Notes under the pieces: model-generated
The model's input: the letters and a program-made list of their open reading frames with translations, nothing else
What the model was told of the DNA's origin: nothing
Database searches by the model: none
Shown here: in pieces, positions 1,649 to 59,565 of the stretch
How positions within the stretch are numbered: the first letter of the stretch is position 1
Layout: each line of letters starts with the position of its first letter
Assembly: GCA_964429795.1 (NCBI GenBank)
Contig: CAYSCW010000004.1
Coordinates: forward strand, 35,939 to 99,938
DNA length: 64,000 nt
DNA from: an uncultured Eubacteriales bacterium
GTDB taxonomy: Bacteria; Acidobacteriota; Aminicenantia; Aminicenantales; Aminicenantaceae
Direction of reading: 5' to 3'
Translations under genes and position numbers: made by a program

Positions 1649-1910
1649 AATAAGCCCTCTCTGAATTGGAATTCCTCCTCTTTACAATGACTCTAATAAT
1701 AATCTTCAATCACCTCAAACTGGCCTCTACAGCCGAGAACTCTCCTTCATGTTAGGCTATCCGACCGGCGCTGTGACTGGTTATATCCCTCATCTTTAAC
1801 TGTCACGGAAATGGAGATGCTCTCCTCTTTTTTTCTTTGTTTGAAATAAGGGTATGCTTTTTCTATAATAACGGGGAAAACAAGCCTGAGTCCAAACAGC
1901 AGGAGAGCGA

Positions 1911-20490: not shown

Positions 20491-20716
20491 TTTACCTCCT
20501 TCAAATAAAGACAATACTCTCTTTTGAGTTGCTGTGGTTTAACTTTTTAGGTGGGGAACAAGCAAAATCTCTTCCTTTTGAAAATATCAAAATATCAATA
20601 TTGCCATTTCAAGTCAACTGTTTCAAGCGAAATCATCTCTTTTTCCGTAATGAGGAAAGACATTTGATAGAATGAGGAATGGCGGCGCGGGTTTCCGTCC
20701 ATCCCCGACTGAATGG

Positions 20717-20745
20717 TTGACAGCGGGGAAATCAGGTGATATGTA
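20717..20745 (+). promoter_or_regulatory. Sigma70-like promoter candidate for the downstream hydratase/ADH operon
   Basis: TTGACA (20717-20722), 17 nt, TATGTA (20740-20745), about 60 nt upstream of the ATG at 20806. It lies in a 290-bp divergent intergenic region that also holds an AAAATATCAA direct repeat. Confidence 0.3.
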
Positions 20746-20805
20746 TTACATCTCAACTCCCATCAATCGACATTGATGAAAATCATCCTTTAAAAGAGGA
20801 ACATC

Positions 20806-21585
20806 ATGACTCAAAAAAATTATGAAAACGTCCTCTTTGAAATCAAAGAAGAAAAGGCGCTCTTAACCATCAACCGCCCCCCTTTAAACATACTGAATAT
20901 CGCGACAATGGAAGAAATGAATGAGGCTCTGCGTTCTTTAATGGAGAATATAGAAGTCAAAGTTGTGATTATATCCGGGAGCGGGGACAAGGCTTTCTCT
21001 GCAGGAGTGGATGTGGCTGACCATACAGAAGAAAAGGTAGAAAAGATGCTTCATGTCTTTCATGATATCTTCCGCAACCTCGCCAAACTCGATCAGGTCA
21101 CTGTGGCTGCCTTGAAGGGATTGACTTTAGGAGGAGGATGTGAAATCGCTCTTTTCTGTGATTTGATCATCGCCGCTGACAATCTGAAAATCGGACAGCC
21201 GGAGATAAAACTCTCAGTCCTTCCTCCCATAGCCCTATTGATCATGCCCCGCCTTGTGGGACTGAAAAAAGCAGCCGAGCTCCTGTTAACAGGAAAAACC
21301 ATCGATGCCCATGAAGCCGAGCGAATAGGTCTGATTAACAAAGTCACACCTCTTGACTCATTCGATTCTGAATTGGAGACCTTTATTCAACCCCTGACTG
21401 AGCTGAGCTTGGTGGGATTGAAGTATTCCAAAAAAGGAATCACCCTGGGATTAGAAACGGCTTTCTCGGAAGGACTGCAGAGGATTGAAGAGATTTATCT
21501 TGGAGAATTGATGTCCTCAGAAGATGCCCATGAGGGTCTCCGAGCCTTTATGGAGAAAAGAAAGCCTCTCTGGAAAAATAAATAA
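20806..21585 (+). CDS. Enoyl-CoA hydratase/isomerase (crotonase); candidate cyclohexa-1,5-diene-1-carbonyl-CoA hydratase (Dch-like)
   Basis: 259-aa crotonase fold (SGSGDKAFSAGVD, GGGCEIALFCD); immediately followed by a Zn-ADH, as in dch-had pairs. Confidence 0.65.
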   Translation: MTQKNYENVLFEIKEEKALLTINRPPLNILNIATMEEMNEALRSLMENIEVKVVIISGSGDKAFSAGVDVADHTEEKVEKMLHVFHDIFRNLAKLDQVTVAALKGLTLGGGCEIALFCDLIIAADNLKIGQPEIKLSVLPPIALLIMPRLVGLKKAAELLLTGKTIDAHEAERIGLINKVTPLDSFDSELETFIQPLTELSLVGLKYSKKGITLGLETAFSEGLQRIEEIYLGELMSSEDAHEGLRAFMEKRKPLWKNK

Positions 21586-24419: not shown

Positions 24420-26942
24420 TCAAGATACTCCTGATCTTTCTAGAGTCCTCATATTCTTTTTGCACTTCCTAACTTTATCCTCAAAGGGAATATCGTCGAT
24501 CAAGGGCAAGAGAAATTCCATCATTTCTTTCTTCAGCATGTTATCCAGAAGTTCGATGGAATAGTCGATGGATTTTTTTGTCCCTGCAGTGATGTTCTGG
24601 TACGCCTTGATGACATCTTCTTTAGCATAGACCAGACTCAGAAGTTCAAAAATATGCTTAAGGCAACGCGCTAAATTTTTTTCTAGCTCCTTAGCTAGAG
24701 ACACTTTTTTCTCATCCCCTTTCAAGCCGTCGATTTCTATCAAGATCAGATAGCTTTTCTTTATCATCCGCAGAGTTTCAGGAAGAACAATCTCATCTCG
24801 AAAATGGATATGGGGGTGTTTTGATTTCATCTTGAACATGGCCTCGATAATCTCCGACTCTACATCACCGTCTCTTCTTTTCAGCCCTAAGGAAAGGAGA
24901 TAGGCAGCTTTTTGAGTCCCTGTGTTGGCTAAGATATCAGGGATGGCCTTTCGGACTCGGATGTCTTCATCCTGGTCTCCCAGATAATCTTTTAGTGTCC
25001 CCACGATTTTGTTTCCATATTCAGCCAGAGCCTCACTGGCTATCCTTTGGGTAGAAGGCCTGCGAAGATGAGGAATGATGAGAGGAACAAAATCTCTTGT
25101 CTTCAGTTTTCCAGCGCTCTCCACAGCATATTTGATGACTTCTGGCGATTTATCTCGAAGAAGCTTGTTGAGATTATGAGTAAGAGAGGAGGTTGGTTTC
25201 ATCATACCCAGAACCTTGGCTGCTTCCATCTTGGACACTTCCGCATCCTTGCTTTCCTCATCGGCGATTTTATCGATGTGCTCTTTCATCAACTCCTGGT
25301 AGACATCGAGGGACATGATTTCCTTAACCTGGGCATCGAGATCTTCCTCCTCCAGAACATCATCCATTTCAGGAAGCAAGGCCTCGCCATCCAATTCCAG
25401 AAGGGAATCCATAGAGCCGGCTTTTATTTCATCAGATTTGCCGGAGATTATTCCTTTTAATGCAGGACTTAATTTATCTCTTTTGACTAGGTCAAAAAGA
25501 TTCATAGCATAAAGGACTGAACTCCTTTTTTTGCTTTCCAGAGTGTCAAAAACAAGTTTTGTCATATCGATATCAATCTTTTCTCCGATAAATTTATCCG
25601 CGTCTTCCCATTTTATTCTTAAGTTTCTCTTGACAATACCCACATACTCCTTGGTAATCATGAGATTAAGGCCAATCCATACAATGAGAAAAATTATGGT
25701 GACCAAACTGATTCGGACGACAGATAAATGAAAAACGAAAAGGAACAATAGGATAATGAGAGCTCCAAGACCTTTTGCAAATTTGTTGACAAACATATCG
25801 ATGAAGACCTTGGCTTTATATTTGATGTCAGGAGAAATGGGGATGTAAAGAAGCTCTCTCACTGACTGATTGAGGGAATAGGCCAGACTTTTATCCGCCC
25901 CTTTAATCAAGACTCCCCAGTAAATCAAATAGAGCATGGGGATGAAGAAGATGGCCACAGAACCCACCAATAAGAGAAAAGGGGCAACTAAAAGCGCCGC
26001 GCGGATTCCGAAGTTCTTCAGGATACGGCTGGTGAGAAGGACATGTAGCAAATAGGAAAATACAAGCATTCCAGTAAAAAAAATCCCCAGAAAAGAAGTC
26101 ATAGCATCTTTCTTGACCAAAACCTCCCCATCTACGGCCTCTGTGAAATGCTTTTCAACCACAGAATTGAACTGAAAATCGATCAAAGTGGTCACCACAA
26201 AAGTCGCAATCATGATCCCGCAGAGAAGCAGCAAATAACGATTTTTCCTGATCAACTGTAGGCTTTTGCCGTATCCTACCCTGGTTTTTTTCTTATCTCT
26301 AGTGGGCTGAGTCTCTTCCTCTTTTTCTCCTGGTATGCATTTTGAGATGAAAGTGATAATAACCAGACAAAAGATAAGCATCAGAGGACAAATCAAAAGG
26401 AGGTTTTCTGTTCCGAATTGCATGGCCAACAACGAGGCCAAAAGGGCTCCTGCTACTCCTCCCAAAAGTCCTCCGCTTACCAGAAAGCCAATCAGTCTTT
26501 TTGCCTGCCTTGGGTTATAGATATCGTTAACCAATATCCAGAATTGAGTGACAGATGTGGCTATGAAAATATCTGCCCAAAACCAATAAATTATGGAAAG
26601 CCAATCCCAGTTATATCTGAAAAACATCCAGAACAGCAAAAGACAGACTATAAAAAAAACCAGGCTCAAAGAGATGTAAACACGTCTCTTCATCACATGC
26701 AACAACCTGGAATTTAAAGAAACCACAAAACCGATCAAGACGGCTGTCAAAAGGTAGGCATAAGGGAGTCTGGTGAAAGACAGGCTTTCCAGGAAGAGCG
26801 AAATCTTGACGGGTTTGATGATGTAAACCGAGGAAGTGATGAGGAAAAAATAAATGAACAAGAGAATAGAGGAAGAAACTTCCCCTGCTCTTATGTCAGC
26901 AAAGTAGGATAAAAGCTTTTGGACTCGGTTCTTAGCCATCAA
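24420..26942 (-). CDS. TLC-family (ATP/ADP-translocase-like, TC 2.A.12) transporter fused to a C-terminal HEAT-repeat domain
   Basis: 840 aa. The N-terminal ~430 aa are polytopic and carry the TLC signature block FWILVNDIYNPRQAKRLIGF (compare Tlc FWQFANQITKIAEAKRFY). The C-terminal ~400 aa are soluble with repeated helical HEAT/PBS-lyase-like units. The gene overlaps its paralog by 11 nt. Confidence 0.6.
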   Translation of the reverse strand: MMAKNRVQKLLSYFADIRAGEVSSSILLFIYFFLITSSVYIIKPVKISLFLESLSFTRLPYAYLLTAVLIGFVVSLNSRLLHVMKRRVYISLSLVFFIVCLLLFWMFFRYNWDWLSIIYWFWADIFIATSVTQFWILVNDIYNPRQAKRLIGFLVSGGLLGGVAGALLASLLAMQFGTENLLLICPLMLIFCLVIITFISKCIPGEKEEETQPTRDKKKTRVGYGKSLQLIRKNRYLLLLCGIMIATFVVTTLIDFQFNSVVEKHFTEAVDGEVLVKKDAMTSFLGIFFTGMLVFSYLLHVLLTSRILKNFGIRAALLVAPFLLLVGSVAIFFIPMLYLIYWGVLIKGADKSLAYSLNQSVRELLYIPISPDIKYKAKVFIDMFVNKFAKGLGALIILLFLFVFHLSVVRISLVTIIFLIVWIGLNLMITKEYVGIVKRNLRIKWEDADKFIGEKIDIDMTKLVFDTLESKKRSSVLYAMNLFDLVKRDKLSPALKGIISGKSDEIKAGSMDSLLELDGEALLPEMDDVLEEEDLDAQVKEIMSLDVYQELMKEHIDKIADEESKDAEVSKMEAAKVLGMMKPTSSLTHNLNKLLRDKSPEVIKYAVESAGKLKTRDFVPLIIPHLRRPSTQRIASEALAEYGNKIVGTLKDYLGDQDEDIRVRKAIPDILANTGTQKAAYLLSLGLKRRDGDVESEIIEAMFKMKSKHPHIHFRDEIVLPETLRMIKKSYLILIEIDGLKGDEKKVSLAKELEKNLARCLKHIFELLSLVYAKEDVIKAYQNITAGTKKSIDYSIELLDNMLKKEMMEFLLPLIDDIPFEDKVRKCKKNMRTLERSGVS

Positions 26943-29439
26943 TTTTTTTTAAAAGCGAAGAGGTCTTGAGCAGGCCTCGGCACCTTTTCACTCTTTGTGC
27001 AAAAGGAATATTTTCGATGAGGGGAAGGAGGATGTCTCTAATTTCCTTTTCCAGAGTATTGTCAAGAAGTTCAACAGCATAAGCAGTCGAATCCTTGGTC
27101 CCTTCCTTGATGTTTTGATAGGCCCTGAAAATATCTTCATGCGTGTAGATGAGTCCCAGCAGCTTGAAAATATTGGCCAGAGACTGAGTAAGATCCTGAC
27201 GAGCGGGCTTTTCCGCTTGTTCTTTCTTTTCCTTAGTCAACGCTCGATAAAAATCAATGAGATTTGTACAGTAATTCTTGACTTCTTTGGCAATTTTTCG
27301 CTTGACGATCTCTTTCTGGAATAGAAAATCAGGATTATCCGAGCGGATTCTATCTAAGGCATCGATCAGTTCTGGATCCAGATCATCCTTTTCCTCTGCA
27401 AGTTCCCAGGTGAGGAAGTCGAGCGCTTCCTGGCCTCCAATGCGTGCTACGACTTTGACCAATTCTTTTCTCAACTCTATATCCACCTCAGAATCTCCTA
27501 TATAATCAGAAAGAGTGCCGACGATTTTTTGGCCGTATTTTTCAAGAGCTGTACTGGCATCTTCACGGGTAAGACGGCTGGATAACTTCTGGACTATAGA
27601 AGGAACATAATCTCTCTGCTTTAGCCTGGCTGCACTCTCCACAGCATACTTGCTCACCTCAGGTGATTCTTCATGGAGAAGGTCTTCAAGCGTATGGGTA
27701 AGAGGAGAATGAGAGTCCATCATTCCCAGAGCTTTGGCTACTTCCATTTTGGCGATTTCTGTCTCCTTGCCTTCTCTAGACATGACTTTCTCCACATAAT
27801 CCTTCATGACTTCCTGATAAACATCCAAAGACATGATCTCTTTTATCTCTTTCTTCAAGAATTCTTCACTGATATCATCCTCTGTTTCAGGTATCAGAGT
27901 GGTCTCTTCGGTCTCTAAAAGCACTCCCAATGAGGAGACTCTTATCTCATCAGATTTGTAAGAAATTACTTTTTTCAGCTCAGGAGTCAGTTTGTCCTGT
28001 TTGATCAAGTCGAACAAATGCATGGCATATAAGACAGAACTCCGATTCTTGCTCTCGATGGTGTCAAACACCAATTTCGTGTAATCCACATCCATTCTTT
28101 CTGTTATGAGCTTATCTGCTCGATCCCATCTCTTCTCCAACTTGTTTTTGACTGTACTCACATATTCCCGACTGACCTTAAGGTTGAGGAGAATCCAGAC
28201 AAGAATAAAAAGAACCGAAACAAGGCTAGTAAATCGGATGCCGATGGGCACCAGAACAAGGATCATGAGAATTAAAGCCCCAATGCCCTTGGCAAATCTG
28301 TTGATAAATATATCGATGAATATCTTTGCCTTAGTCTTGAGCTCTGGAGAGACAGGAATGTAGAGTAGCTCCCTAACGGATTGATTGATGGAATAAGAAA
28401 GGCTTTTATCACTCCCCTTAAGAAAGATGGCAAAAACGATACTGGCAAAGACAGCAATCCCTAAGGAGCCGAGAAGTAATAGAAGAGGAAAAAGCAGAAG
28501 AGTCAAACGAATACCATAGCGCTTGATGATGTTGCTAGTCATGAGTAGCTGAAGGAAGAACGCGAAAACCATCAACGCAGCATAAAAATGCCCAAAAAAG
28601 AATGTCAGATTATCCTTTCCAGAGATATTGATATCAATAACTCCTTTGAACTGAAAATCGATAAAAGTAGATACAATCCATGTGATGGTCACCATGGCTG
28701 CCAGCAATTTTAGATAAGAGTCTCGCCTCACTGTATTGAAACAATCCTTAAAACCCACTTTAAGTGGTTCTCCCCCTTTGCTTATATCTCTATTTTTGCC
28801 CGCTTTCACCTTATCAAATGTAGATTGTCGTTTCCTGTGCAACACAAAGATATAATGAACGATGAAAATACAGACAAAAAACATTCCGCAAGCTATGAGA
28901 AGAAGATGATTGGAAACTTTTGACTTAGCTAAAAGTCCAGCCGTTTCATATCCGACGATGCCTCCTAAAATTCCCCCACTCCCCATGAATCCGATCATCC
29001 GCTTAACCTCTCTTGGATTAAACACATCGTTAACAGTGATCCAAAATTGAGTCATCAGAACCACCAACATATTGACCCAGATCCAAAAAGCAAGAGGTAT
29101 CCATTCCCATTCCTTAGGGAAAATCCACCAAAAGAGCAGGGAGGTCAGGATGAAAAAGACAAGGCTGAGGGTAAGTAAAAGATGTCTTTGGATTTTGGCC
29201 TGGAGTTTAGAATGAAAAGCAACCACAAAACCTATGATTATAGCTGTAAGCAAGTAGGCAACAGGTAATTTTTTATAGGACAAAACATCCAAATAGAAGG
29301 CATCTCTCAAGGGTTTGACAATGGAGAAAGGAGCTGCGATAAGAAAAAAATAAAGAAAAAGAAGAAGAGCTATAAGCTCTTCACCAGGATTCAAATCGAC
29401 GATACGCGATAAAACTTTATACAGGCGATTTTTGGCCAT
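26932..29439 (-). CDS. TLC-family transporter fused to a C-terminal HEAT-repeat domain (paralog of 24420-26942)
   Basis: 835 aa with the same architecture; TLC block FWITVNDVFNPREVKRMIGF. The two genes are tandem and translationally coupled. Confidence 0.6.
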   Translation of the reverse strand: MAKNRLYKVLSRIVDLNPGEELIALLLFLYFFLIAAPFSIVKPLRDAFYLDVLSYKKLPVAYLLTAIIIGFVVAFHSKLQAKIQRHLLLTLSLVFFILTSLLFWWIFPKEWEWIPLAFWIWVNMLVVLMTQFWITVNDVFNPREVKRMIGFMGSGGILGGIVGYETAGLLAKSKVSNHLLLIACGMFFVCIFIVHYIFVLHRKRQSTFDKVKAGKNRDISKGGEPLKVGFKDCFNTVRRDSYLKLLAAMVTITWIVSTFIDFQFKGVIDINISGKDNLTFFFGHFYAALMVFAFFLQLLMTSNIIKRYGIRLTLLLFPLLLLLGSLGIAVFASIVFAIFLKGSDKSLSYSINQSVRELLYIPVSPELKTKAKIFIDIFINRFAKGIGALILMILVLVPIGIRFTSLVSVLFILVWILLNLKVSREYVSTVKNKLEKRWDRADKLITERMDVDYTKLVFDTIESKNRSSVLYAMHLFDLIKQDKLTPELKKVISYKSDEIRVSSLGVLLETEETTLIPETEDDISEEFLKKEIKEIMSLDVYQEVMKDYVEKVMSREGKETEIAKMEVAKALGMMDSHSPLTHTLEDLLHEESPEVSKYAVESAARLKQRDYVPSIVQKLSSRLTREDASTALEKYGQKIVGTLSDYIGDSEVDIELRKELVKVVARIGGQEALDFLTWELAEEKDDLDPELIDALDRIRSDNPDFLFQKEIVKRKIAKEVKNYCTNLIDFYRALTKEKKEQAEKPARQDLTQSLANIFKLLGLIYTHEDIFRAYQNIKEGTKDSTAYAVELLDNTLEKEIRDILLPLIENIPFAQRVKRCRGLLKTSSLLKKIDG

Positions 29440-30069: not shown

Positions 30070-31215
30070 ATGAGGGCTCAGGAATCGTTAAAAAAAGGAA
30101 ACAAGGTTTCCATGAAAAACATCACAGGAAAGAATCCGACGAGAAAAATTAAATCCTCTCTTATCTTTACCCTGCTCATCTTCCTCCTTTTTTCCTGCCT
30201 GTACGCAGGCAAAATCCAATGTGTTTGGACGGGAGTCGAAAAAATCATTGCTGTGGGAGATATCCATGGCGATTACAGCAATTTCCTGAAAATCTTAAAG
30301 GGAGTGGGACTCATCGATGAAGCTCTTCATTGGTCAGGCGGCAAAACCCATTTTGTCCAAACTGGAGATATTATGGACAGAGGCCCTGACGCTCGAAAAG
30401 TCTTTGACTTGCTGATAAAACTGGAGAAGGACGCTGAAAAAGCGGGAGGCAAGGTCCACGTTCTTCTTGGCAACCATGAGGAGATGAATATCACTGGCAT
30501 ATCCTTCGATTATCCCGGATATGTCACGGTGGAGCAATTTGTCTCTTTCTTGCCTGGCAGTTATAAAAAAAAGGAAGAAAAAGAATTCCAAGAACAGTCA
30601 GGCAAAGAGAATCTTAGTGGCTCGCATTCGGATCTTTCCTCGAATAATTCCTTAAGAGCGAAATGGGAAAATCTCCTCAAGACCGACTTGAGTGCTCGGA
30701 AGGAATATATCATTTTTTTCAACAAAAATTATGGTAAGTGGTTGCTTAAACACAATGCGGTCATCAAAATCAACGATGTCATATTCGTCCATGGAGGGAT
30801 CAGCAAAAAATTCTCAAAATGGAAACTGGAGGATATAAACGAGCAGTTGCGGATAGAGCTCTCCTTTCTGCGCAGGGCAGCCATCAATTCATCGCCTTCA
30901 AAAATTACCTTCACTCCCCAAATTGTTTACAAAAGCGAAGGGCCTCTCTGGTATCGAGGTTTAGCCACCATGAATGAGGCAATTTTCGAGGCAGAGGTTG
31001 ATAAAACCTTGACTAATCTGGGAGCAAAATACATGGTTATTGCTCATACACCGCGAATGGGCAGCCCAGTTATGGCAGAGGAGTATTTAAGACGTTTTCA
31101 CGGAAAAGTCTGGATTATCGACACGGGAATTTCAGAATTTTATGGAGGATTTTTGAGTGCTTTAATAATCAAGAATGGAGAATTTTCTCTTTGGGCGGTG
31201 GGTCATGAACGATAA
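30070..31215 (+). CDS. PPP-family metallophosphatase (PP1/PP2A/ApaH-like) with an N-terminal signal anchor
   Basis: All PPP signature motifs are present: GDIHGD, GDIMDRGPD, GNHE, HGG and a GH motif. The N-terminus has a basic stretch followed by one hydrophobic helix (KIKSSLIFTLLIFLLFSCLYA), implying extracytoplasmic or membrane-anchored topology. Confidence 0.75.
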   Translation: MRAQESLKKGNKVSMKNITGKNPTRKIKSSLIFTLLIFLLFSCLYAGKIQCVWTGVEKIIAVGDIHGDYSNFLKILKGVGLIDEALHWSGGKTHFVQTGDIMDRGPDARKVFDLLIKLEKDAEKAGGKVHVLLGNHEEMNITGISFDYPGYVTVEQFVSFLPGSYKKKEEKEFQEQSGKENLSGSHSDLSSNNSLRAKWENLLKTDLSARKEYIIFFNKNYGKWLLKHNAVIKINDVIFVHGGISKKFSKWKLEDINEQLRIELSFLRRAAINSSPSKITFTPQIVYKSEGPLWYRGLATMNEAIFEAEVDKTLTNLGAKYMVIAHTPRMGSPVMAEEYLRRFHGKVWIIDTGISEFYGGFLSALIIKNGEFSLWAVGHER

Positions 31216-32005
31216 AAATTATGTCCTTCTCATTTTCATCTGCCTCACTCTAGCCAATTGGTGCCTGAGCTTATCTCAATCGCCAGATCGAGGGAATTGG
31301 GACCAAGATAAACTGGAGAATTATCTGAGAACAGCTGAGATCATTTCTGTGGAAAAAGACACAGAAGCGGGAAGGACCGCACCGTGGAGAATCACACTCA
31401 ACGACGGAATAACTCAACGCCAAGGCCTCTTCAAGTACATCAATCGCTCCCGACCTTCCCTTCTTCCTGATAGTTATAAATACGAGATTGCCGCTTATGA
31501 ACTGGACAAACTCCTCGAGCTCAAAATCGTACCTCCCGTTGTGGAAAGAGAAATTGAAGGGACAACAGGTTCTCTTCAACTTTATCTAGAAGGCTGCATA
31601 AGAGAAGCCGAGAGAAAAAGGAAAAAAATAGATCCACCAGATCCTGTATCCTTTCAGAACATGCTGGAAGTGATCAATGTTTTTGAGAATTTGGTCCTTG
31701 AAGAGGATTGTTTTGATGCCAATGACATCCTGGTTGATCTTGATGAGTGGAAAGCGTATCGAGTCGACTTTTCCATGGCCTTCTCCCCTCTGCCTGAGAT
31801 CATTTCTGGATGCAAAATCAACAAGTGTTCTCGTAAATTCTACAACAACCTCCTCCAATTGGATGACCTTCAAGTCAAGAATAAACTCAAGCCATTTCTC
31901 AATGACCCAGAGATTGAAGCTCTGCTTCAACGCAAAAAAATCATCATCGAAAAGATCGGGCAATTGATTAAAGAAAAGGGACAAGATGCTGTCCTCTTCA
32001 ACTGA
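31205..32005 (+). CDS. Secreted minimal kinase-like protein, paralog 1 (RIO/Kdo/WaaP-like fold; catalytic motifs degenerate)
   Basis: Signal peptide MNDKNYVLLIFICLTLANWCLSLSQS. It keeps the paralog-family blocks K...YEIAAYELDKLLELKIVPPVVE, but has EEDCFDAND in place of the DRHxxN loop and VDFS in place of IDHS. Its ATG overlaps the phosphatase stop by 11 nt. Confidence 0.4.
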   Translation: MNDKNYVLLIFICLTLANWCLSLSQSPDRGNWDQDKLENYLRTAEIISVEKDTEAGRTAPWRITLNDGITQRQGLFKYINRSRPSLLPDSYKYEIAAYELDKLLELKIVPPVVEREIEGTTGSLQLYLEGCIREAERKRKKIDPPDPVSFQNMLEVINVFENLVLEEDCFDANDILVDLDEWKAYRVDFSMAFSPLPEIISGCKINKCSRKFYNNLLQLDDLQVKNKLKPFLNDPEIEALLQRKKIIIEKIGQLIKEKGQDAVLFN

Positions 32006-34542: not shown

Positions 34543-34723
34543 TCCTCTGACTCCTTCTTACTTACATATTCTATAGAGAATCAAAACCTGGAACACAGCC
34601 ACAGCTATAGTCTTCATTTTCTCATCAACCTAATCTATTTTATTTTATACAAAAAAGCGCATATATGATAATACTCTCTCCACGGCTCTAAAAGAATCTC
34701 CGCGATAGGAGTGAGGGCGGGGG

Positions 34724-34859
34724 ATCGTCAGCACGCAGATTTTTCCCAGCGAGGAAAATCAGCTCTCGTTCGGGCTTCGGAGGGACAGGAACCGCCGCCT
34801 CATAACCTAACTGGACGAAATATCTTCACTTTTCACGGAGATGGAGATGTTATCCACGG
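34724..34859 (+). repeat. Mosaic leader repeat, copy D (modules M1, M2, M3 in direct order) upstream of kinase-like paralog 2
   Basis: M1 at 34724-34755 (ATCGTCAGCACGCAGATTTTTCCCAGCGAGGA), M2 at 34772-34799 (GGGCTTCGGAGGGACAGGAACCGCCGCC), M3 at 34833-34859 (TCACGGAGATGGAGATGTTATCCACGG). Modules recur at 37176-37271, 38352-38490, 48365-48489, 58227-58323 and 1803-1825. Confidence 0.7.
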
Positions 34860-34940
34860 GTGTTTTTGATTTGCCTTTCAAGGTAAGTGTCAATATAATA
34901 ACTGCGACAAAACTCGGGTTTTTCGAACGGGAAGAAAAAA

Positions 34941-35768
34941 ATGAGAAGAAAAATCATCTTCATCGCTGTTCTCATCCTTTTCCTTGCCCAAAACTATAAC
35001 ATAATCGCCCAATTTACCCCAGAAGAACTGGGAGAAAGAGCCAACTGGGAAGAATTTCTCAAGACGGCAGAAATCATCAAGTACCAAGAGATAGGCGAAG
35101 GAGTAACTAAGCCCATAAGACTCTACTTGAAAAAAGGAGATACAGAAGCCAGCGGGGTCTGGAAAAACCCAAAGGGCATCCAGGAAGGCTTCCTTGAGGG
35201 CTGGGAGTATGAGATCGCCGCTTATCAAATGGATAAGATTCTGGAGCTGAATATGGTTCCCCCCACAGTGGAGAGAGAATTCGAGGGAAAAAAGGGTTCT
35301 CTTCAGCTTTGGGTTGAGGCTGAATTCAGTCTCCTCGATATCATGGAAGAAAAAATTGCAATGCCCGCTTCTGGATCAGAATCCGACAATATCCAGAAGA
35401 CCAAATATCTAACCAGAGCTTTCGACAGTCTGATCGCCAACGAAGACAGAACCCAGCAGAATATTTTTTACACAAAGGACTGGCGGGTGATTCTCATCGA
35501 TCATTCCCGTTCCTTTCGTTCTTCCAAGAAATTCACCAAACAGCTTATGTTCGGGAGAACTGGCATCGAAGGGAACAAACCTTTCAGACAGCTGCCGTGC
35601 GCATTCGTAGAAAAAATAAAGGCACTGGATTTTGAAATCATCAGAGAAGCTGTTGGCCCTTATCTCCAAGATAAAGAGATAAAAGCCATCCTTGCTCGCA
35701 AAAAGCTTATATTGGCAGAAATTGATGAAATGATAAGAGAAAAAGGCGAAGAAAATGTTTTGTATTGA
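34941..35768 (+). CDS. Secreted minimal kinase-like protein, paralog 2 (RIO/Kdo/WaaP-like motifs intact)
   Basis: Signal peptide MRRKIIFIAVLILFLAQNYNIIAQ; a putative beta3 Lys (VWK) and alphaC Glu in EYEIAAYQMDKILELNMVPPTVE (RIO-like E..F..L..L...GI.VP.P block); catalytic-loop-like LIANEDRTQQN; DFG-like ILIDHSRSF 18 residues later. Confidence 0.45.
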   Translation: MRRKIIFIAVLILFLAQNYNIIAQFTPEELGERANWEEFLKTAEIIKYQEIGEGVTKPIRLYLKKGDTEASGVWKNPKGIQEGFLEGWEYEIAAYQMDKILELNMVPPTVEREFEGKKGSLQLWVEAEFSLLDIMEEKIAMPASGSESDNIQKTKYLTRAFDSLIANEDRTQQNIFYTKDWRVILIDHSRSFRSSKKFTKQLMFGRTGIEGNKPFRQLPCAFVEKIKALDFEIIREAVGPYLQDKEIKAILARKKLILAEIDEMIREKGEENVLY

Positions 35769-35828
35769 TCATTCACATTATCTACATTTGATGGAAATAA
35801 AGTTTATCAATAATAAGGAAGGTAAAGG

Positions 35829-36641
35829 GTGAAAAGAAAAATTACTTCTCTTTTCTTTCTTGTTATCTTTTTGGGTTTCCTTTTTCAGTTGTTAGCCCAA
35901 TTCACTGCAGAAGAAATAGAAGAGAGAGCAAAATGGGAAGAGTTCCTGGAGACGGCAGAAATCACAGGCTCCGATCAGCCATGGGTAGAACGGGAGGCCG
36001 TGACCAATCCCTGGAGGTTGACCATTGAAAAAGATGGGATTGTGAAACAGGCAATATGGAAGAACGTGGAAGGCAGGGTGAAGGGGTATCTCGATAACTG
36101 GAGATGGGAGATCGCAGCTTACCGCTTGGACAAATATTTGGGCTTACACATGGTTCCTCCCACTGTAGAAAAAAGATTTCGAGGGGATCGTGGATCCTGT
36201 CAATTACTGGTCGATTACTGGATCAGCCTTAAGGATAAATATGAACAAAACATAAAAACTCCCTCTTATAAAATTTTCAACTGGAATAGAGCTCTCTACC
36301 TGCAGCGGGCTTTCGACAATCTGATCGCCAATGAAGACCGTCATCAGAATCAGTACCTCATAACCGAAGATTGGCGGATGATTCTTATTGATCATTCTCG
36401 GTCTTTCCGCACATCCAAAAAATTCACCAAAGATCTCATCTATGATGCAAACTACAAAGAAGGTCCGAGGTTGATGAAGGAGCTCCCCAGTTCTCTTGTA
36501 GAGAAGCTGAAAAGCCTCAATCATGAGGTGATAAGAGAAGTTGCAGGAGAATATTTGACAGAAAAGGAAATCGAGGCTATCCTTATCAGAAGAGATTTGA
36601 TACTCAAGGAAATCGACAAGATCAAAACGGTTCTCTACTGA
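35829..36641 (+). CDS. Secreted minimal kinase-like protein, paralog 3 (tandem to paralog 2)
   Basis: GTG start with an AGGAAGG RBS; signal peptide MKRKITSLFFLVIFLGFLFQLLAQ; blocks WEIAAYRLDKYLGLHMVPPTVE, LIANEDRHQNQYLI and ILIDHSRSFRTSKKFTK shared with paralog 2. Confidence 0.45.
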   Translation: MKRKITSLFFLVIFLGFLFQLLAQFTAEEIEERAKWEEFLETAEITGSDQPWVEREAVTNPWRLTIEKDGIVKQAIWKNVEGRVKGYLDNWRWEIAAYRLDKYLGLHMVPPTVEKRFRGDRGSCQLLVDYWISLKDKYEQNIKTPSYKIFNWNRALYLQRAFDNLIANEDRHQNQYLITEDWRMILIDHSRSFRTSKKFTKDLIYDANYKEGPRLMKELPSSLVEKLKSLNHEVIREVAGEYLTEKEIEAILIRRDLILKEIDKIKTVLY

Positions 36642-36644
36642 TTC

Positions 36645-37130
36645 CTAAATTTCAGTCTTCTTGATGGTCTTATACATGATCAGCACGTTCTGATTGTCTT
36701 CGCGTCTGTAATCAAATCCGTCCATAAGTTTTCGAACAAGAAAGATACCCAAGCCGCCTGTTTTTGCATCCTTGATCATTTCTTCTATGTCGGGGGCCTT
36801 CGACTGGGTTGGATCAAAGGGAACTCCATTATCCCTGATTTCAAAGAAGATCCTTCCCTCTTCCTGCCATATCTTGAGGAAGATAGTGCCCCTCTTCCTG
36901 CGATAGGCATATCTTACGATATTGGAACATATCTCTAAGAGGGAAAGCTCAATGATGTAATAGGCCTTTTCAGAAAGATTTAAATCCTGGAGGGCATCTC
37001 GAAGAAAGGTTCTAGCTTTATCCAGTTCTGCAAAGTCGCTCAGAATCTTAAACTTTTTCATTTCCGTTCTGTATGGTTTCTTTTTTCCCTTTCTGCTTTC
37101 CTTGATTGAAGAGCCTCCCAATTTTCTCAT
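36645..37130 (-). CDS. Anti-sigma-factor serine kinase (RsbW/SpoIIAB-like, GHKL ATPase)
   Basis: GHKL motifs EIRDNGVPFDP and GGLGIFLVRKLMD; 161 aa as listed. A second in-frame start MKKFKILSDF at 37061 would give the canonical ~138-aa size. Confidence 0.65.
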   Translation of the reverse strand: MRKLGGSSIKESRKGKKKPYRTEMKKFKILSDFAELDKARTFLRDALQDLNLSEKAYYIIELSLLEICSNIVRYAYRRKRGTIFLKIWQEEGRIFFEIRDNGVPFDPTQSKAPDIEEMIKDAKTGGLGIFLVRKLMDGFDYRREDNQNVLIMYKTIKKTEI

Positions 37131-37175
37131 CTAAATTTATAACAATATGAAAAATCATGTCAAATTGACGGTCAA

Positions 37176-37271
37176 GGATGTAAGCATTTTCATTTCCATA
37201 ATGATTGAAGATATTTCATCCAATCAGGTAGTGAGGCGGCGGTTCCTGTCATTTGACATCCTGATTTTCTC
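37176..37271 (-). repeat. Mosaic leader repeat, copy E (M2 and M3, minus orientation) upstream of the RsbW-like kinase
   Basis: The reverse complement reads GAGAAAATCAG...GACAGGAACCGCCGCCTCACTACCTGATTGGATGAAATATCTTCA...ATGGAAATGAAAATGCTTACATCC, which is more than 80% identical to copy D over about 60 nt. Confidence 0.65.
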
Positions 37272-37425
37272 TATGCTATAAGTAGCGGCAACTCTAAGGG
37301 AAATAACACACTTGATCATCCTGTCGAGTTTTACGAATAGAATGGAAGAAGTTGATTTTCCTGAAGTAATCTCATAAGAAAATGTCTATAATGAAAGTCT
37401 AATCAAACACGAAAGGAAAACCCTC

Positions 37426-38118
37426 ATGCACCACATACATGAAGAGACAATCATCCAAGAGTGCGTAGCAAAGTTAAAAAGCGGAAAACTCGCACCCTGG
37501 AAAGTGGAAGAGGAAATCCAGAAAGAGTATGAAATCCCTTCTCCAAATAATTTCAAGATCGCCGCAGCATGCAGGCAGAAATTTATCGAAGAAGAGACAG
37601 GCGAAAAATTCGTCTTTATCTCCATCTCCTCCCAGCCTTACAAAGAACGGTACATCTGTGAGAATGACCATCTTGCCTGGGAACTCGACATTTCAGACAC
37701 GGATCTTACCTGTTCGCTATGCGGAACCGAACTGAAGCCTTTAGGACAATATGCTCCGCTGCTTGCCAACTATGTGGGAGGAGTAGAAGATTACTATTCT
37801 TATGGAGGGCGATTAAAGGTCAACGGCGACTTGGAGACAGAGTTGACAAGCCTTCTTGTCTATGGAACAGGAATGGGCCCGATGGGTGTGACCAGAGGAT
37901 GTTATATCATCAATAAATTTGGCGGGGCTGAGGTCAAGGTTTCACAGTTCGGCAGAGCAGCTCGTTCGCTTGGCTTGATCTTCAAGAACGAAGAGATGCG
38001 AAGGAAAGCCATATCGACAATCCAACTCTTCTTTCCCGAAGCCAAAGCCCGAATGCAGGAGAGAACAAGGAAGATATTATCTATAGGGTGGAGCTGCCTA
38101 ATATTGAAGCGGGAGTGA
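37426..38118 (+). CDS. Hypothetical protein; possible frameshift with a 63-codon ORF continuing in another frame at 38088-38279
   Basis: 230-aa ORF with a CxxC pair. It overlaps by 31 nt a short ORF whose translation (GREALRIMGIKTAKEFAASVASQVLAGEFNLALEI) looks like a conserved C-terminal helix rather than an independent gene. Confidence 0.3.
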   Translation: MHHIHEETIIQECVAKLKSGKLAPWKVEEEIQKEYEIPSPNNFKIAAACRQKFIEEETGEKFVFISISSQPYKERYICENDHLAWELDISDTDLTCSLCGTELKPLGQYAPLLANYVGGVEDYYSYGGRLKVNGDLETELTSLLVYGTGMGPMGVTRGCYIINKFGGAEVKVSQFGRAARSLGLIFKNEEMRRKAISTIQLFFPEAKARMQERTRKILSIGWSCLILKRE

Positions 38119-38351
38119 TCTCCTCCAGCGAAGGACTCATCCCTCCTACAGGACGTGAAGCATTGAGAATCATGGGAATTAAAACAGCAAAGGAATTCGC
38201 AGCTTCTGTAGCCTCCCAGGTTCTTGCCGGGGAATTCAACCTGGCCTTAGAGATATCCCGGGAAAAACTTTACAGTTGATTCATCTAGAATCTATAAATG
38301 AAAGATGTCCTTGTAGAAGATTGGAAGCATCCCCAAAACCGTGATGCAGTA

Positions 38352-38490
38352 ACAGTCAGGTAAGCTGATTCGTCAGCCCGCGGATTTTCCCCCAGCGAGG
38401 ATGGAGAGGAACCATGCCCGCTCGCCTCCGGATGACTTCCTCCCCAGCTTACCTGACTGCTGTTGAAATTGTCACAGAAATAAGGATGCT
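38352..38490 (+). repeat. Mosaic leader repeat, copy A: M1 and partial M2 enclosed by 15/16-bp inverted repeats, then a degenerate M3
   Basis: IR-L ACAGTCAGGTAAGCTG at 38352-38367 and IR-R CAGCTTACCTGACTG at 38445-38459 flank CGTCAGCCCGCGGATTTTCCCCCAGCGAGGATGGAGAGGAACC. The M3-like TCACAGAAATAAGGATGCT lies at 38472-38490. Confidence 0.7.
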
Positions 38491-38620
38491 TTTATGAAGA
38501 TTTGATATTTTCAAAAAAATATCATATAAATGAAATTCACATCATCGAATTTGCGTATTATCATACGAATTCACTATAAAATTAAATGCTTATTCAGACC
38601 CAGAAAAGAGGAGAGACAAA

Positions 38621-48244: not shown

Positions 48245-48364
48245 ATCAGTATTTCCACGAGGAAGAATTCCCATTTCCATGATAGCTAATGATGAGGGAT
48301 ATAATCAGTCACAGCGCCGGGGTTCCCCTTCATCCTCGCCAAAAACCCTCCCACCCTTATCTAT

Positions 48365-48489
48365 GGGCTTCGGTTGGACAGAAACCGCCGCCTCTCCTAC
48401 TTTCCTCGCTGGGGAAAATCCGCGGGCTGACGATTCAGCTTGCCTGACTGTTCCCAAAATCATCACGGAAATGGAAATGCTATCCCACG
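48365..48489 (+). repeat. Mosaic leader repeat, copy C: M2(+), M1 with its inverted-repeat arm in inverted orientation, M3(+)
   Basis: M2 GGGCTTCGGTTGGACAGAAACCGCCGCC at 48365-48392. The reverse complement of M1 and of the IR arm lies at 48401-48451. M3 TCACGGAAATGGAAATGCTATCCCACG at 48463-48489 is 83 nt upstream of the 48572 start. Confidence 0.7.
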
Positions 48490-48571
48490 AAAAAAAGTTG
48501 CCAAAAGGAGAAGGGAGAATTATAATCCAGAAATAAAGATAATATTGAAACAAACCAAAAAGGAGGAAAGC

Positions 48572-49243
48572 ATGATGAGAAAAATTCCTAAATCTTATTT
48601 GGGTTTTGTCATCATCCTGGGAGCTGTTTGGGGCTTTTCCGAAGCTGCTCTGGGAATGTGGCTCCGAAGCTGTGCTTCCTTATACTCTGGTGCCATCATG
48701 ACAGGGGTAGCCTTGTTCTTTATGGCTTCCGGTTGGTACCTTACCAGGAACCTCCTCTGTATGGGATTCCTGATACTCATCACCAGCCTCTTCAAGATGT
48801 TCGACGCACTCCTCCTTTCGCTCCCCATCCAGCACGGAGCCATAGGAAATCCCATTTTTGCCTTTTTCACAGAAGGAATCGCCTTCCTGATCTTGATCGC
48901 TGTTTTCAACCAAAAACTGAAACAGAAAAGCGGAGGCCAAGCCTTAATGGGGGGAATGACTGCCATCCTGGCCGTGAATCTTTTCCCTTTGGTGAAGTAT
49001 GTCACGGGAGTACCAGCCTGTGTTGTCCCTGGAACAGGATATCCCCTCTCCCTTTACTATGCCCCATTAGCTGTTTTTCTATCTTTCCTGACTGTTCCTT
49101 TGGGTGCATGGGTCGGAGTGAAAAGCCAATCTCTTGAAACTATACTCCAATCATCTCGAATAGCAAGAAAGCTGAGTTTTATTTTTTCTCCCGGAACCTT
49201 GCTCTTGTGTTTGGCCCTCACAGCTCTCATCAGGCTGGGCTAA
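48572..49243 (+). CDS. Hypothetical polytopic membrane protein
   Basis: About 224 aa with 5-6 TM segments. AGGAGG RBS 5 nt upstream of the ATG at 48572. The longer listed ORF (from 48440) runs through the repeat element and is unlikely to be real. Confidence 0.4.
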   Translation: MMRKIPKSYLGFVIILGAVWGFSEAALGMWLRSCASLYSGAIMTGVALFFMASGWYLTRNLLCMGFLILITSLFKMFDALLLSLPIQHGAIGNPIFAFFTEGIAFLILIAVFNQKLKQKSGGQALMGGMTAILAVNLFPLVKYVTGVPACVVPGTGYPLSLYYAPLAVFLSFLTVPLGAWVGVKSQSLETILQSSRIARKLSFIFSPGTLLLCLALTALIRLG

Positions 49244-57596: not shown

Positions 57597-58172
57597 TCAA
57601 CAAGGATCGCAGACATCTCCAAACCCGTGATGAGTGAAGATAGCCTTTCTCATCTGAGAAAAAGCATCTTTCTCTTCTATATCAAATACTCTTACTTCTT
57701 TGTCTCTAAGCAGGCGGAGAAAATCTTTGAGGATACTTTTTCTGATGACAAGAATAAGGCCCTTTGGAGGAGATGAGAGAGCCTGTCTCAAAGCTGACCA
57801 TAACCCTTCTCCCTTGATCTCCAGAGGACCGATTTCATCGACCACCAGAATATTGACTCCTCTGCTTCGCAAGATCTGATCTCTTGCGTGGGCCAAGGCT
57901 TCAGGAATAAAAAAATACGACCCGATTCTTTCCCATCCCTCTTCTCCCTCCCTGCGGATGTAAGGAATGTATTGCTCATCTTTTAGATCATATAAATCAT
58001 ATCCAAGAATTTCCTTGTTTCTAATAATAGCCACACTCAGAAAACCGGCTGTCTTAAGGTTTTCCCTCCTCAAACTATCAACAAGCCTCTTTAAAAAAGT
58101 GGTCTTTCCCGAATGAACAGGACCAGTAAGCACAAAAATCATGGATAAAAGATAATAAATAAGCGCAGCCAA
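57597..58172 (-). CDS. P-loop NTPase, THEP1/NTPase_1-like
   Basis: Walker A motif GPVHSGKTT and Walker B motif LVVDEIGPLE; about 180 aa; heads the xdhC-mocA operon. An alternative start MIFVLTG lies at 58142. Confidence 0.45.
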   Translation of the reverse strand: MAALIYYLLSMIFVLTGPVHSGKTTFLKRLVDSLRRENLKTAGFLSVAIIRNKEILGYDLYDLKDEQYIPYIRREGEEGWERIGSYFFIPEALAHARDQILRSRGVNILVVDEIGPLEIKGEGLWSALRQALSSPPKGLILVIRKSILKDFLRLLRDKEVRVFDIEEKDAFSQMRKAIFTHHGFGDVCDPC

Positions 58173-58226
58173 GTCAAAATCTAACTGGGAATCAAGATCA
58201 TATCCATTTCTGGGATGAGTTTGAGG

Positions 58227-58323
58227 ACAGTCAGGTAAGCTAATTCGTCAGCCCGCGAATTTTCCCCAGCGAGGATGGAGGGGAACCGACGCTTTTATCA
58301 GCTATCACGAAAATGGAACTGCC
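58227..58323 (+). repeat. Mosaic leader repeat, copy B: IR-L arm, M1, degenerate M3 upstream of the ArsA-like gene
   Basis: ACAGTCAGGTAAGCT at 58227-58241, then AATTCGTCAGCCCGCGAATTTTCCCCAGCGAGGATGGAGGGGAACC, then TCACGAAAATGGAACTGCC at 58305-58323, which is 80 nt before the 58402 start. Confidence 0.65.
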
Positions 58324-58401
58324 AGCAAAGAAAAAGGAGTGATATTGACTTACTCCTTGGGCATGATACAATAGTTTTACTCTCTAAAACAGAGAAAGAA
58401 G

Positions 58402-59565
58402 ATGCGGATTATTCTTTTTACAGGAAAAGGAGGCGTGGGGAAGACGACTCTCGCGGCAGCAACAGCGCTTCTTTCTGCCCAAAAAGGTCACAAGACCCTT
58501 ATCATCTCAGCTGACGCAGCACATAGCCTCTCTGATTCATTGGAGACTCAACTTTCCAACCAACCCCGCAATATAGCACCTAACCTTTACGGTCAGGAGG
58601 TCAATGCTCTTGAGGAAATCGAGAAGAAATGGGGAGAAATCAAAAACTATCTCGTCGCTTTTTTCTCCAGCCAGGGTATCGATACCATCGAGGCAGAAGA
58701 GATGAGTGTTTTCCCTGGTATGGAGGAACTCTTCAGCCTGATGGAAATCCGTCAATACCATAAAGACGAAGAATACGATGTTACCATCGTCGACTGTGCC
58801 CCCACTGGCGACACCCTCAGATTCTTGAGCGCCCCTGAAATTACCGGCTGGTATCTCAAACATATCTTTCCCCTCCAGAGAACCGCGGCGAAAGCGGTAA
58901 GGCCCGTAGCCAGTCGAGTCCTTCCTTTCCCTTTTCCAGAAGACAAGGTCTTTGAAGCCATGAAAAGCCTGACCACACAGCTGGCAGAGATGAAAGAAAT
59001 CCTTATCGATCCCCAAAAAACCTCCATCCGCCTCATCATCAACCCTGAAAAAATGGTGATCAAAGAAGCCCAGCGGGCTTATACTTTCTTCAACCTCTTC
59101 GGATATTCTGTCGATCTTGTCATCGTCAATCGCATCATTCCCGCTGAAGTCCGTGATGCCTATTTTATAAAATGGAAATCCATTCAGAAGGAATATCTGC
59201 AAATGATCAAAGAGATTTTTTCTCCTCTTCCCATTTTTTTCTCAAATCTCTTCTCCCAGGAAGTTCTGGGAAAAGAACTCCTCACCAAGATGGCTGGGAA
59301 AGTCTACGGGAAAGAGGATCCCACAAAATTGTTCTTCACCCAGAAACCAATATCCATCGAGAAAGCTGACGGAGGCTTTGATATTTTTTTGTATCTTCCT
59401 TTTGTCAAAAAGCGGGACTTGGACCTTTTCCAAAAGGGAGAAGAACTCTTCATCAAGGTTGGACATTACAAAAGAAATATACTTCTTCCTCAAACCCTTC
59501 TCAACTACTCTATTAAAGAAGCAAAGTTTGATAAGGAAATGCTGAAAATATGCTTTCGCCAATAA
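58402..59565 (+). CDS. ArsA/Get3-family anion-transporting-type ATPase (single-domain form)
   Basis: Deviant Walker A motif FTGKGGVGKTT; 387 aa. Confidence 0.75.
   Translation: MRIILFTGKGGVGKTTLAAATALLSAQKGHKTLIISADAAHSLSDSLETQLSNQPRNIAPNLYGQEVNALEEIEKKWGEIKNYLVAFFSSQGIDTIEAEEMSVFPGMEELFSLMEIRQYHKDEEYDVTIVDCAPTGDTLRFLSAPEITGWYLKHIFPLQRTAAKAVRPVASRVLPFPFPEDKVFEAMKSLTTQLAEMKEILIDPQKTSIRLIINPEKMVIKEAQRAYTFFNLFGYSVDLVIVNRIIPAEVRDAYFIKWKSIQKEYLQMIKEIFSPLPIFFSNLFSQEVLGKELLTKMAGKVYGKEDPTKLFFTQKPISIEKADGGFDIFLYLPFVKKRDLDLFQKGEELFIKVGHYKRNILLPQTLLNYSIKEAKFDKEMLKICFRQ

Follow-up and report, generated by a model that had tools for sequence, protein, structure and literature searches.

We analyzed 64,000 nucleotides of DNA from an uncultured Eubacteriales bacterium (GTDB lineage Acidobacteriota, Aminicenantia, Aminicenantales, Aminicenantaceae; contig CAYSCW010000004.1, positions 35,939 to 99,938), hereafter referred to as the window, in which an earlier note had described three recurring sequence modules (M1, M2 and M3) and a 15-bp inverted repeat (IR) in the 5' leaders of at least six genes. 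Our analysis indicates, with a probability of roughly 0.8, that these modules are pieces of a single family of small, non-coding DNA transposons (MITEs, for miniature inverted-repeat transposable elements) of Candidatus Aminicenantes, which is intact in other genomes and one end of which is coupled to promoter-like sites. The possibility of a small mobile MITE-like element had been raised in the note, and it was borne out by the anatomy and distribution of the family: short non-coding units with terminal inverted repeats, a fixed-length (9-bp) target duplication, many dispersed copies, and presence or absence of the unit at an orthologous site, as is characteristic of MITEs.

Within the window, all the described modules were present at the places reported and far above chance (expectation across the pattern searches for M1, M2, M3 and the IR arm, 0.00–0.29). 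The M1 pattern matched four times (34725+, 38370+, 48411- and 58245+; 0.00 expected), full copies of M2 were found at 34772+ and 48365+ (0.00 expected) together with a partial minus-strand copy at 37233-37250, and M3 occurred with no more than three mismatches at 1803, 34833 and 48463 (0.05 expected) and in weaker form at 37183(-), 38470 and 58305. The IR arm, CAGTCAGGTAAGCT, was located at 38353+, 38446-, 48437- and 58228+. Self-comparison reproduced both the enclosure of M1 by the IR (15 of 15 positions matching, 38353-38367 and 38445-38459) and the inversion of M1 with one arm in the 48.4-kb copy (48401-48452), and the reported likeness of two leaders (34784-34849 and 37185-37250) amounted to 80% across 66 nt, or 88.9% across 45 nt. 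The site at 1803-1825 had been described as M3 only; M3 is indeed there, but a 57-nt match linking 1765-1821 with 48264-48320 had been missed. At the six listed copies, M3 ended 90, 90, 53, 133, 91 and 78 nt before the start codons of genes for PanE/ApbA-like, weakly HipA-like, HATPase_c_2, small domain-less, membrane and ArsA-family proteins (an exact-protein look-up for the membrane-protein gene at 48572 gave no record). Thus, the earlier statement that M3 always sits about 80 nt upstream of a start codon is a fair rounding of these distances, but it does not hold for the M3 copies that face away from the genes (38323-38346, 48261-48285 and approximately 58197-58219).

The earlier note had also proposed that the modules be sought in other genomes, and many further copies turned up. 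A scan for the M1 pattern over one genome per species yielded 75 stretches, mostly in metagenome-assembled genomes (MAGs) of Aminicenantes, with approximately 48 in a single MAG and many at contig ends; metagenomes provided a further 98 stretches with the element. From repeat to repeat the units measure 120–380 bp, complete ones 190–380 bp, and no open reading frame (ORF) fits inside. M3 is the terminal inverted repeat, ∼23 bp long and present at each end of the unit in two forms, which end in GTAAGCAT... and GGAAGCAT...; the repeat reads GTAAGCATTTCTTTTTCCGTGAT at one end and GGAAGCATTTCCAAAACCGTGAT at the other, and in the consensus sequences (...ATCACGGAAAAAGAAATGCTTAC and ...ATCACGGTTTTGGAAATGCTTCC) conservation stops exactly after GCTTAC and GCTTCC. 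Between the terminal repeats lies a structured core of ∼140 nt, closed by an outer stem of 16–18 bp (P1), which corresponds to the 15-bp IR. M1 is the 5' part of this core and consists of a conserved unpaired string, TCGTCAGCMC, and a hairpin (P2); it is followed by a two-part helix (P4) around a variable hairpin (P3) and then by two conserved strings, GAACCATGCCCGCTC and GCTTCCTC. The 3' arm of a separate hairpin module of ∼75 nt (...CGGTTCCTGTCCATCC...loop...GGATGGACAGRAACC...) constitutes M2; in some metagenomic copies this module lies inserted within the core, and in others, such as locus L182 (L numbers denote loci outside the window), it makes up the whole interior. The frame is asymmetric, with ∼5 nt between the GTAAGC end and one arm and ∼25 nt between the GGAAGC end and the opposite arm. 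In a long variant, the P2 loop contains a multi-hairpin insertion of ∼165 nt.

Further interior variants were observed at L054 (4395-4590), L074 (∼7700) and L060 (∼2560-2830); they have nothing in common beyond their terminal repeats, the arm and GCTGACGA, and one recurring segment contains GTGACAGGACCC. The family therefore has modules beyond those analyzed here. At six loci (L084, L088, L093, L095, L103 and L180), a second element of the M2-hairpin type was positioned head-to-head with the first, separated by a few bases from the latter's GTAAGC end and ∼130–260 nt past M1. Elements seem to insert beside each other's ends.

Transposition of the unit is supported by its borders. The 9-mers abutting the two unit ends agreed at a mean of 5.5 of 9 positions, compared with 2.5 under the null (standard deviation 0.34; maximum 3.8 in 5000 shuffles); the target duplication is 9 bp, and perfect 9/9 pairs were found at L053, L006, L074, L056, L085, L092, L145, L154 and L155. 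A comparison of orthologous sites was possible upstream of the ArsA-family gene. This locus was filled in the window and in L182 (ArsA 97% identical) and empty in L183 (88% identical), where a homologous left flank and the same promoter occurred without the element; L184 (81% identical) had an M3 remnant only. In other genomes, copies of the element occupied unrelated loci, with all intergenic contexts and both orientations represented. With respect to neighboring genes, the core showed 19 divergent, 19 tandem and 6 convergent arrangements and hence no fixed orientation (the ORFs were called crudely, and spurious ones arose from some GC-rich repeats). No synteny was detected between the window and the other loci with the window-type element, so the insertions are independent.

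The two filled ArsA loci differ in their interiors. L182 1035-1190, which is orthologous to window 58197-58326, belongs to the interior M2-hairpin type and has the end module GCGAGGATGGAnAGGAACCGACGCTTTTATCAGC inverted and at the opposite end; this difference could have arisen if another copy took the place of the original one or if the interior was inverted as a whole. In relatives, a cyclase gene (PF04199) sits between the NTPase and ArsA genes, and the L182 contig ends just past it. Compared with L182 and L183, the window lacks this gene (57597-58402) and carries a chimeric element copy in its place, which suggests that the gene was lost by recombination between two element copies. In L184 (1385-1420), a palindrome, AAGCATATGCTT, precedes the solo M3 remnant; it looks like two joined termini and could have been left behind by excision or by an internal deletion.

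These observations bear on another proposal of the earlier note, that the modules are a shared regulatory leader for a regulon that includes the signalling genes; we considered a riboswitch-like element alongside it. The modules do precede at least six genes at similar distances, and two of the leaders are 80–89% alike. However, the genes served are functionally unrelated, promoters are predicted 3' of M3, no RNA family matched, and the genes flanking copies in other genomes, at unrelated loci, are not homologous to those of the window; moreover, the target duplications and the empty orthologous site identify the unit as an insertion. We give such a regulon hardly any credence. As an identity for the modules, a riboswitch or leader was rejected on the same grounds (unrelated genes, downstream promoters, insertion evidence and no Rfam match).

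The GTAAGC end of the element was positionally coupled to promoter-like sites. In the window, a promoter scan placed a strong sigma-70-like site 3' of M3 at five of the six copies, with the -35 hexamer starting 16–20 nt past the GCT of M3. Since these predicted promoters lie between M3 and the start codons, M3 would be upstream of the promoter and outside the transcript. For a wider view, M3 ends were pooled across the window, the loci in genomes and the 98 metagenome stretches, giving 170 unique ends. A promoter-like site was present within 50 nt at 63 of these ends; 31 of the sites started 18–20 nt past GCT and 22 at exactly 19, whereas the best bin under a rotation null averaged 5.3 and never exceeded 11. 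TTG occurred at +19 at 37 of the 170 ends, compared with a background of 2% per position, and the unconditioned consensus of 41 flanks showed TTGa at +19 and TAtAAT at +42. Coupling was also end-specific: it was seen for 15 of 37 GCT-TAC ends (41%), which correspond to the GTAAGC terminus, but for only 1 of 46 GCT-TCC ends (2%), which correspond to GGAAGC (Fisher p = 8.6e-6), and 6 of 10 ends with the window-lineage form GCT-ATC were coupled. Flanking genes differ between loci, and the coupling events are therefore independent.

In the typical arrangement, the distance from the GTAAGC end to a TTGACA-like hexamer downstream of it is 16 nt, made up of the 9-bp duplication and 7 further nt, and a TATAAT-like hexamer follows after another 16–18 nt. 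The 16 nt before the TTGACA-like hexamer are not conserved; as their first 9 belong to the target duplication, the promoter is external to the element. Accordingly, the idea that the element distributes a promoter did not hold, as the element itself carries none and adjoins pre-existing promoters at a fixed distance. The same geometry explains why M3 is found ∼80–90 nt before start codons: the 16-nt offset is followed by 29 nt for the -35 hexamer, spacer and -10 hexamer, ∼7 nt to the start and a short leader. Coupled young copies included L085, L092 and L145, which have 9/9 duplications and satisfy strict promoter criteria, and L140 and L088 with duplications of 8/9; L155 and L171 had near-miss promoters at the coupling offset. 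At L086 (∼4029-4110), an M3 end is followed by a 12-nt offset, TTGACA-17-TAAACT and an apparent tRNA gene (GGCGCGTAGCTCAGTGGTAGAG...), and by this sequence reading docking would extend beyond the promoters of protein-coding genes.

How the coupling arose can be viewed in two ways. Position -52 or thereabouts is near the upstream limit of the RNA polymerase footprint, and the element may integrate in one orientation at this upstream promoter edge (∼-52), possibly while RNA polymerase occupies the DNA. We consider the odds about even that the coupling results from integration directed to the upstream edge of promoter DNA. A more specific version, which is tentative and somewhat unlikely, is that of a cut-and-paste system that would recognize ordinary sigma-70-type promoters through polymerase-bound or bent DNA, with single-nucleotide precision at ∼-52 and with one and the same end directed towards the promoter in every case; the branched core, as RNA or extruded DNA, might aid this recognition or insulate the promoter from transcription arriving from upstream. 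The second explanation is selective retention, in which insertion would be roughly random within intergenic DNA, copies with the GTAAGC end at ∼-52 would be kept, and M3 (centred at ∼-63) would serve as an upstream promoter element or a regulator site; if so, the element really would distribute an operator. It is consistent with the state of the window copies, in which every promoter-proximal M3 is intact, the remainder of each element is deleted or rearranged differently each time and three of the four distal repeats are decayed. Solo M3 remnants likewise keep the offset (M3, 16 nt and TTGACT in L184), and little coupling was seen in the genome with the most recent burst. On the other hand, copies with perfect 9-bp duplications are already coupled, single-nucleotide precision and strict end specificity follow more easily from an integration mechanism than from retention, and M3, as read from its sequence, does not have the dyad symmetry typical of regulator sites. 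We therefore regard retention as unlikely to be the origin of the coupling, although directed integration and retention are not mutually exclusive.

The core of the element showed extensive evidence of conserved pairing. In an alignment of 58 distinct copies, which was fitted to the structural model and hence leans towards it, 89.5% of cells were paired, compared with 79.1% after shuffling and 40–65% when the partners were slid; changes on both sides were found at 26 of 32 core pairs, and covariation was strong in five helices. Independently of this alignment, the P1 arms are wholly different between lineages (CAGTCAGGTMAGCTGA, GGGGTGAGGGATGGGGGG, CAGGCAGGGAAGCTAAT and GGCTCGGATTTGGGAT) yet complementary, and P3 is swapped for unrelated hairpins in some copies while pairing is kept. 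Folding z-scores ranged from -3.1 to -7.6. Together with the conserved unpaired strings and the ∼165-nt multi-hairpin insertion in the P2 loop, all of these features speak for a functional structured RNA gene (a ribozyme, small RNA or guide-like RNA) that is carried as cargo and merely spread by the terminal repeats. Nevertheless, Rfam 15 gave no match at the gathering score for the window and 12 loci and none at E ≤ 10 for an intact copy, and a search with the long variant returned chance-level matches only. Both strands fold well, to an equal or better degree. Counts of G-U versus A-C mismatches were contradictory between helices and gave no consistent strand signal (one of the counts is biased for P1, because its search pattern fixed the left arm). 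In addition, core orientation relative to flanking genes is mixed, no predicted promoter reads into the core in the window, and most window copies tolerate internal deletions. Replication template switching, which Loytynoja and co-workers have reportedly found to create and repair hairpins at the DNA level, could generate and maintain such hairpins, and invert an arm-flanked segment, without selection. Taken together, we consider an RNA gene improbable.

A hammerhead ribozyme was considered separately, as CTGACGA, the reverse complement of TCGTCAG, is the hammerhead box and the helix order on that strand is type II-like; this candidate was rejected, since the GAAA/NUH core was absent and no Rfam match was found at E ≤ 10.

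The earlier note had further suggested an invertible arrangement. Across family copies, both orientations of the core relative to the terminal-repeat frame do exist, but the individual loci were uniform in the assemblies that span them: copy C of the window (Table 1) had the same orientation in three of three (identical in two others) and copy E in two of two, with the restriction that consensus assemblies cannot exclude a minority orientation. A phase-variable switch, in which the segment between the 15-bp arms flips and alters expression of the downstream gene, would agree with the perfect inverted arms of 15–18 bp around the core, with the two orientations and with one contig that breaks exactly at an arm. 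Such breaks, however, are expected at any multi-copy repeat; furthermore, no recombinase domain was found in the genes neighboring the window copies, no promoter-like site was predicted between the arms of copy C (38353-38459), and the downstream promoters are outside the element. A working switch is thus very improbable, and we infer that inversion of the core is a historical feature of the family, which may have occurred between the inverted arms by recombination or replication template switching.

A DDE transposase acting in trans, with IS66 as the most likely family, would mobilize the elements. Duplications of 8–9 bp are reportedly listed for IS66 in ISfinder. IS66 elements have inverted repeats of 20–30 bp starting with GTAAGCG and 8-bp direct repeats (PMC11946415), and an example of an IS66 terminal repeat is given in PMC12888890; the element described here has GTAAGCA... 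(∼23 bp) at one end and GGAAGCA... at the other. The GTAAGC start of one terminus, the ∼23-bp repeat and a duplication of similar length point to IS66 (PMC11946415, PMC12888890). Promoter-precise targeting is not among the properties reported for this family in a large insertion-sequence survey (PMC9208149). An autonomous partner was sought among pairs of M3 copies 0.7–4.5 kb apart and among multi-copy ORFs in ∼1.4 Mb of loci, which returned only orthologous housekeeping genes; the IS66 assignment is tentative because this sequence contained no autonomous partner or multi-copy ORF.

Several points weigh against our interpretation. No autonomous element, multi-copy transposase or tnpA/tnpB/tnpC partner was present in the ∼1.4 Mb of loci, the duplication is 9 bp rather than the 8 bp of IS66 (PMC11946415), and one terminus starts with GGAAGC instead of GTAAGC. 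A plain MITE model leaves the upkeep of a complex covarying core with conserved unpaired strings unexplained, and RNA and DNA structure are not distinguishable because the mismatch counts are inconsistent. As for the promoters, all of them are predicted consensus matches. Coupling was strong in lineages with the CAGTCAGG arm, the window included, and weak in the genome with the GGGTGAGGG arm, which has most copies and in which none of five young copies was coupled; the coupling rule is therefore not family-wide.

Among known bacterial repeats, the Correia elements of Neisseria (CREE/NEMIS) are close in form, being likewise non-coding units of ∼100–200 bp with terminal inverted repeats, hundreds of mostly intergenic copies near gene starts, and internal deletion variants. 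Correia elements influence the transcription of neighboring genes. However, they duplicate TA and contain promoter hexamers and a site for integration host factor within the element, and their interior is a simple hairpin, whereas the Aminicenantes family has a 9-bp duplication, a branched covarying interior and a promoter that is outside the element, at a fixed 16 nt from one specific end. The BIME/REP repeats and the pneumococcal BOX repeats are similar in being intergenic and composed of a few modules in varying combinations and orientations. REPs are linked to RAYT transposases. To our knowledge, neither the BIME/REP nor the BOX families have terminal inverted repeats or target duplications, in contrast to the elements described here, in which both are present and the mosaic is secondary, resulting from deletion and recombination among transposon copies. 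By analogy only, the placement of one defined end at a fixed distance from a landmark is reminiscent of Tn7 at attTn7 and of Ty3 in yeast, which inserts at RNA polymerase III start sites; these belong to unrelated transposon classes, in the present case the landmark would be any sigma-70-type promoter rather than one locus, and no targeting protein was identified.

A literature search found no paper on repeats or MITEs of Aminicenantes and no description of this element family. MITEs are widespread, and by itself one more family of them in an uncultured phylum would be routine. The anatomy of this one is ordinary; what is unusual is its structured interior and its relation to promoters. What stands out is the end-specific placement 16 nt before the -35 hexamer, exact to within a few nucleotides (22 of the 31 coupled ends share a single offset), at dozens of independent promoters in several species, together with a complex covarying interior, a combination that we did not find described for bacterial transposons. 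If integration is promoter-directed, the family would be a bacterial counterpart of the promoter-targeting retrotransposons of yeast and a natural tool to mark or perturb promoters, and its insertions would provide a promoter map for a phylum without a cultured model. If the copies are instead retained by selection, the terminal repeat would amount to an upstream promoter element that is mobile, and the family would be a clear case of a transposon rewiring transcription genome-wide.

The copies in the window and their promoter-like sites are listed in Table 1. All of these copies are old and have been truncated, internally deleted or recombined with one another, and the mosaic appearance of the modules results from such decay and recombination. 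The profile of intact cores gave only partial matches in the window (34712-34779, 38355-38458 with the 46-nt deletion, 48400-48448(-) and 58230-58275). Copy A, a hybrid, covered positions 5–72 of this profile and scored 58 bits with the covariance model; in copy D, a covariance-model match at 48274-48450(-) joined the parts into one rearranged element. Reading leftwards from the GTAAGC end of copy B, 9 nt and 7 nt precede TTGACA. Five assemblies have an identical copy E, and three of these break off within M1.

Table 1. Element copies and promoter-like sites in the 64,000-nucleotide window (promoter-like sites are predicted).
Feature	Coordinates	Strand	Composition	Context
Copy F	1765..1824	+	variant 3' interior; arm remnant ATCCCTCATC; M3 terminal repeat 1803-1824	57 nt 86% complementary to 48264-48320
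Promoter-like TTGAAA-17-TATAAT	1841..1869	+	begins 19 nt past M3 GCT	PanE/ApbA-like gene (1911)
Additional copy, absent from the earlier note	20629..20706	-	M2-like 20681-20706; spacer; M3-like repeat 20632-20650	divergent intergenic region 20514-20806
Copy A (hybrid)	34692..34854	+	decayed left terminal repeat 34692-34709; GGGTGAGGG-type arm 34710-34724; M1 and P2 hairpin 34725-34770; M2 module arm 34772-34801; spacer; M3 repeat 34833-34854	
Promoter-like TTGCCT-17-TATAAT	34871..34899	+	19 nt past M3 GTT/GCT	275-aa HipA-like paralog (34941)
Copy B	37180..37251	-	partial M2; spacer; M3 terminal repeat with outer end GTAAGC at 37180	
Promoter-like TTGACA-18-TAAATT	37134..37163	-		HATPase_c_2 (RsbW-like) gene
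Copy C (complete, repeat to repeat)	38323..38493	+	GGAAGCAT... repeat 38323-38346; P1 arms 38353-38367 and 38445-38459; M1 38370-38400; 46-nt internal deletion taking P2 3'/P4 5'; M3 repeat 38470-38493	target duplication TAGAAGATT 38314-38322 / ATGAAGATT 38494-38502
Copy D (rearranged single element)	48261..48484	-	inverted M3 repeats 48261-48285 and 48463-48484 at ends; arm and M1 on minus strand 48401-48452; M2 hairpin module 48321-48394; variant 3' part 48286-48320	flanking duplication TTTCCACGA / ATCCCACGA
Promoter-like TTGCCA-17-TATAAT (11/12)	48498..48526	+	16 nt past M3 GCT	membrane-protein gene (48572)
Solo M3-like sequence (weak, low confidence)	57612..57642	-		within 3' end of NTPase gene
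Copy E	58197..58326	+	decayed left terminal repeat 58197-58219; arm 58228-58241; M1 58245-58275; large internal deletion; end module GGATGGAGGGGAACCGACGCTTTTATCAGC; M3 58305-58326	
Promoter-like TTGACT-16-TACAAT	58345..58372	+		ArsA-family gene; site conserved in relatives with and without element

Two additional observations concern the assemblies in which the family occurs. In independent assemblies, breaks fall within M1 (following TCGTCA) or precisely at an inverted arm, for example in L076, L078, L080 and L082 (at position 1 of these loci) and in many loci of the M1 scan; the family thus fragments metagenome assemblies of Aminicenantes at M1 and at the arms. Several MAGs titled 'uncultured Eubacteriales' (CAYVAT01, CAZPBN01 and others) have bona fide copies, at L182, L059, L010, L014, L030, L038, L044, L069 and L072. 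The taxonomic titles of these MAGs look wrong, and one of them encodes the ArsA that is 97% identical to that of the window. Protein matches, too, identified the organism of the window as Candidatus Aminicenantes/Aminicenantales.

The window also contains paralogous genes. Two adjacent ORFs of ∼835–840 aa (24420-29439) share 71–74% DNA identity in blocks, and three paralogs of ∼270 aa are located at 31175-32005, 34941-35768 and 35829-36641, with only a weak match to HipA_2; the second of the three is preceded by copy A.

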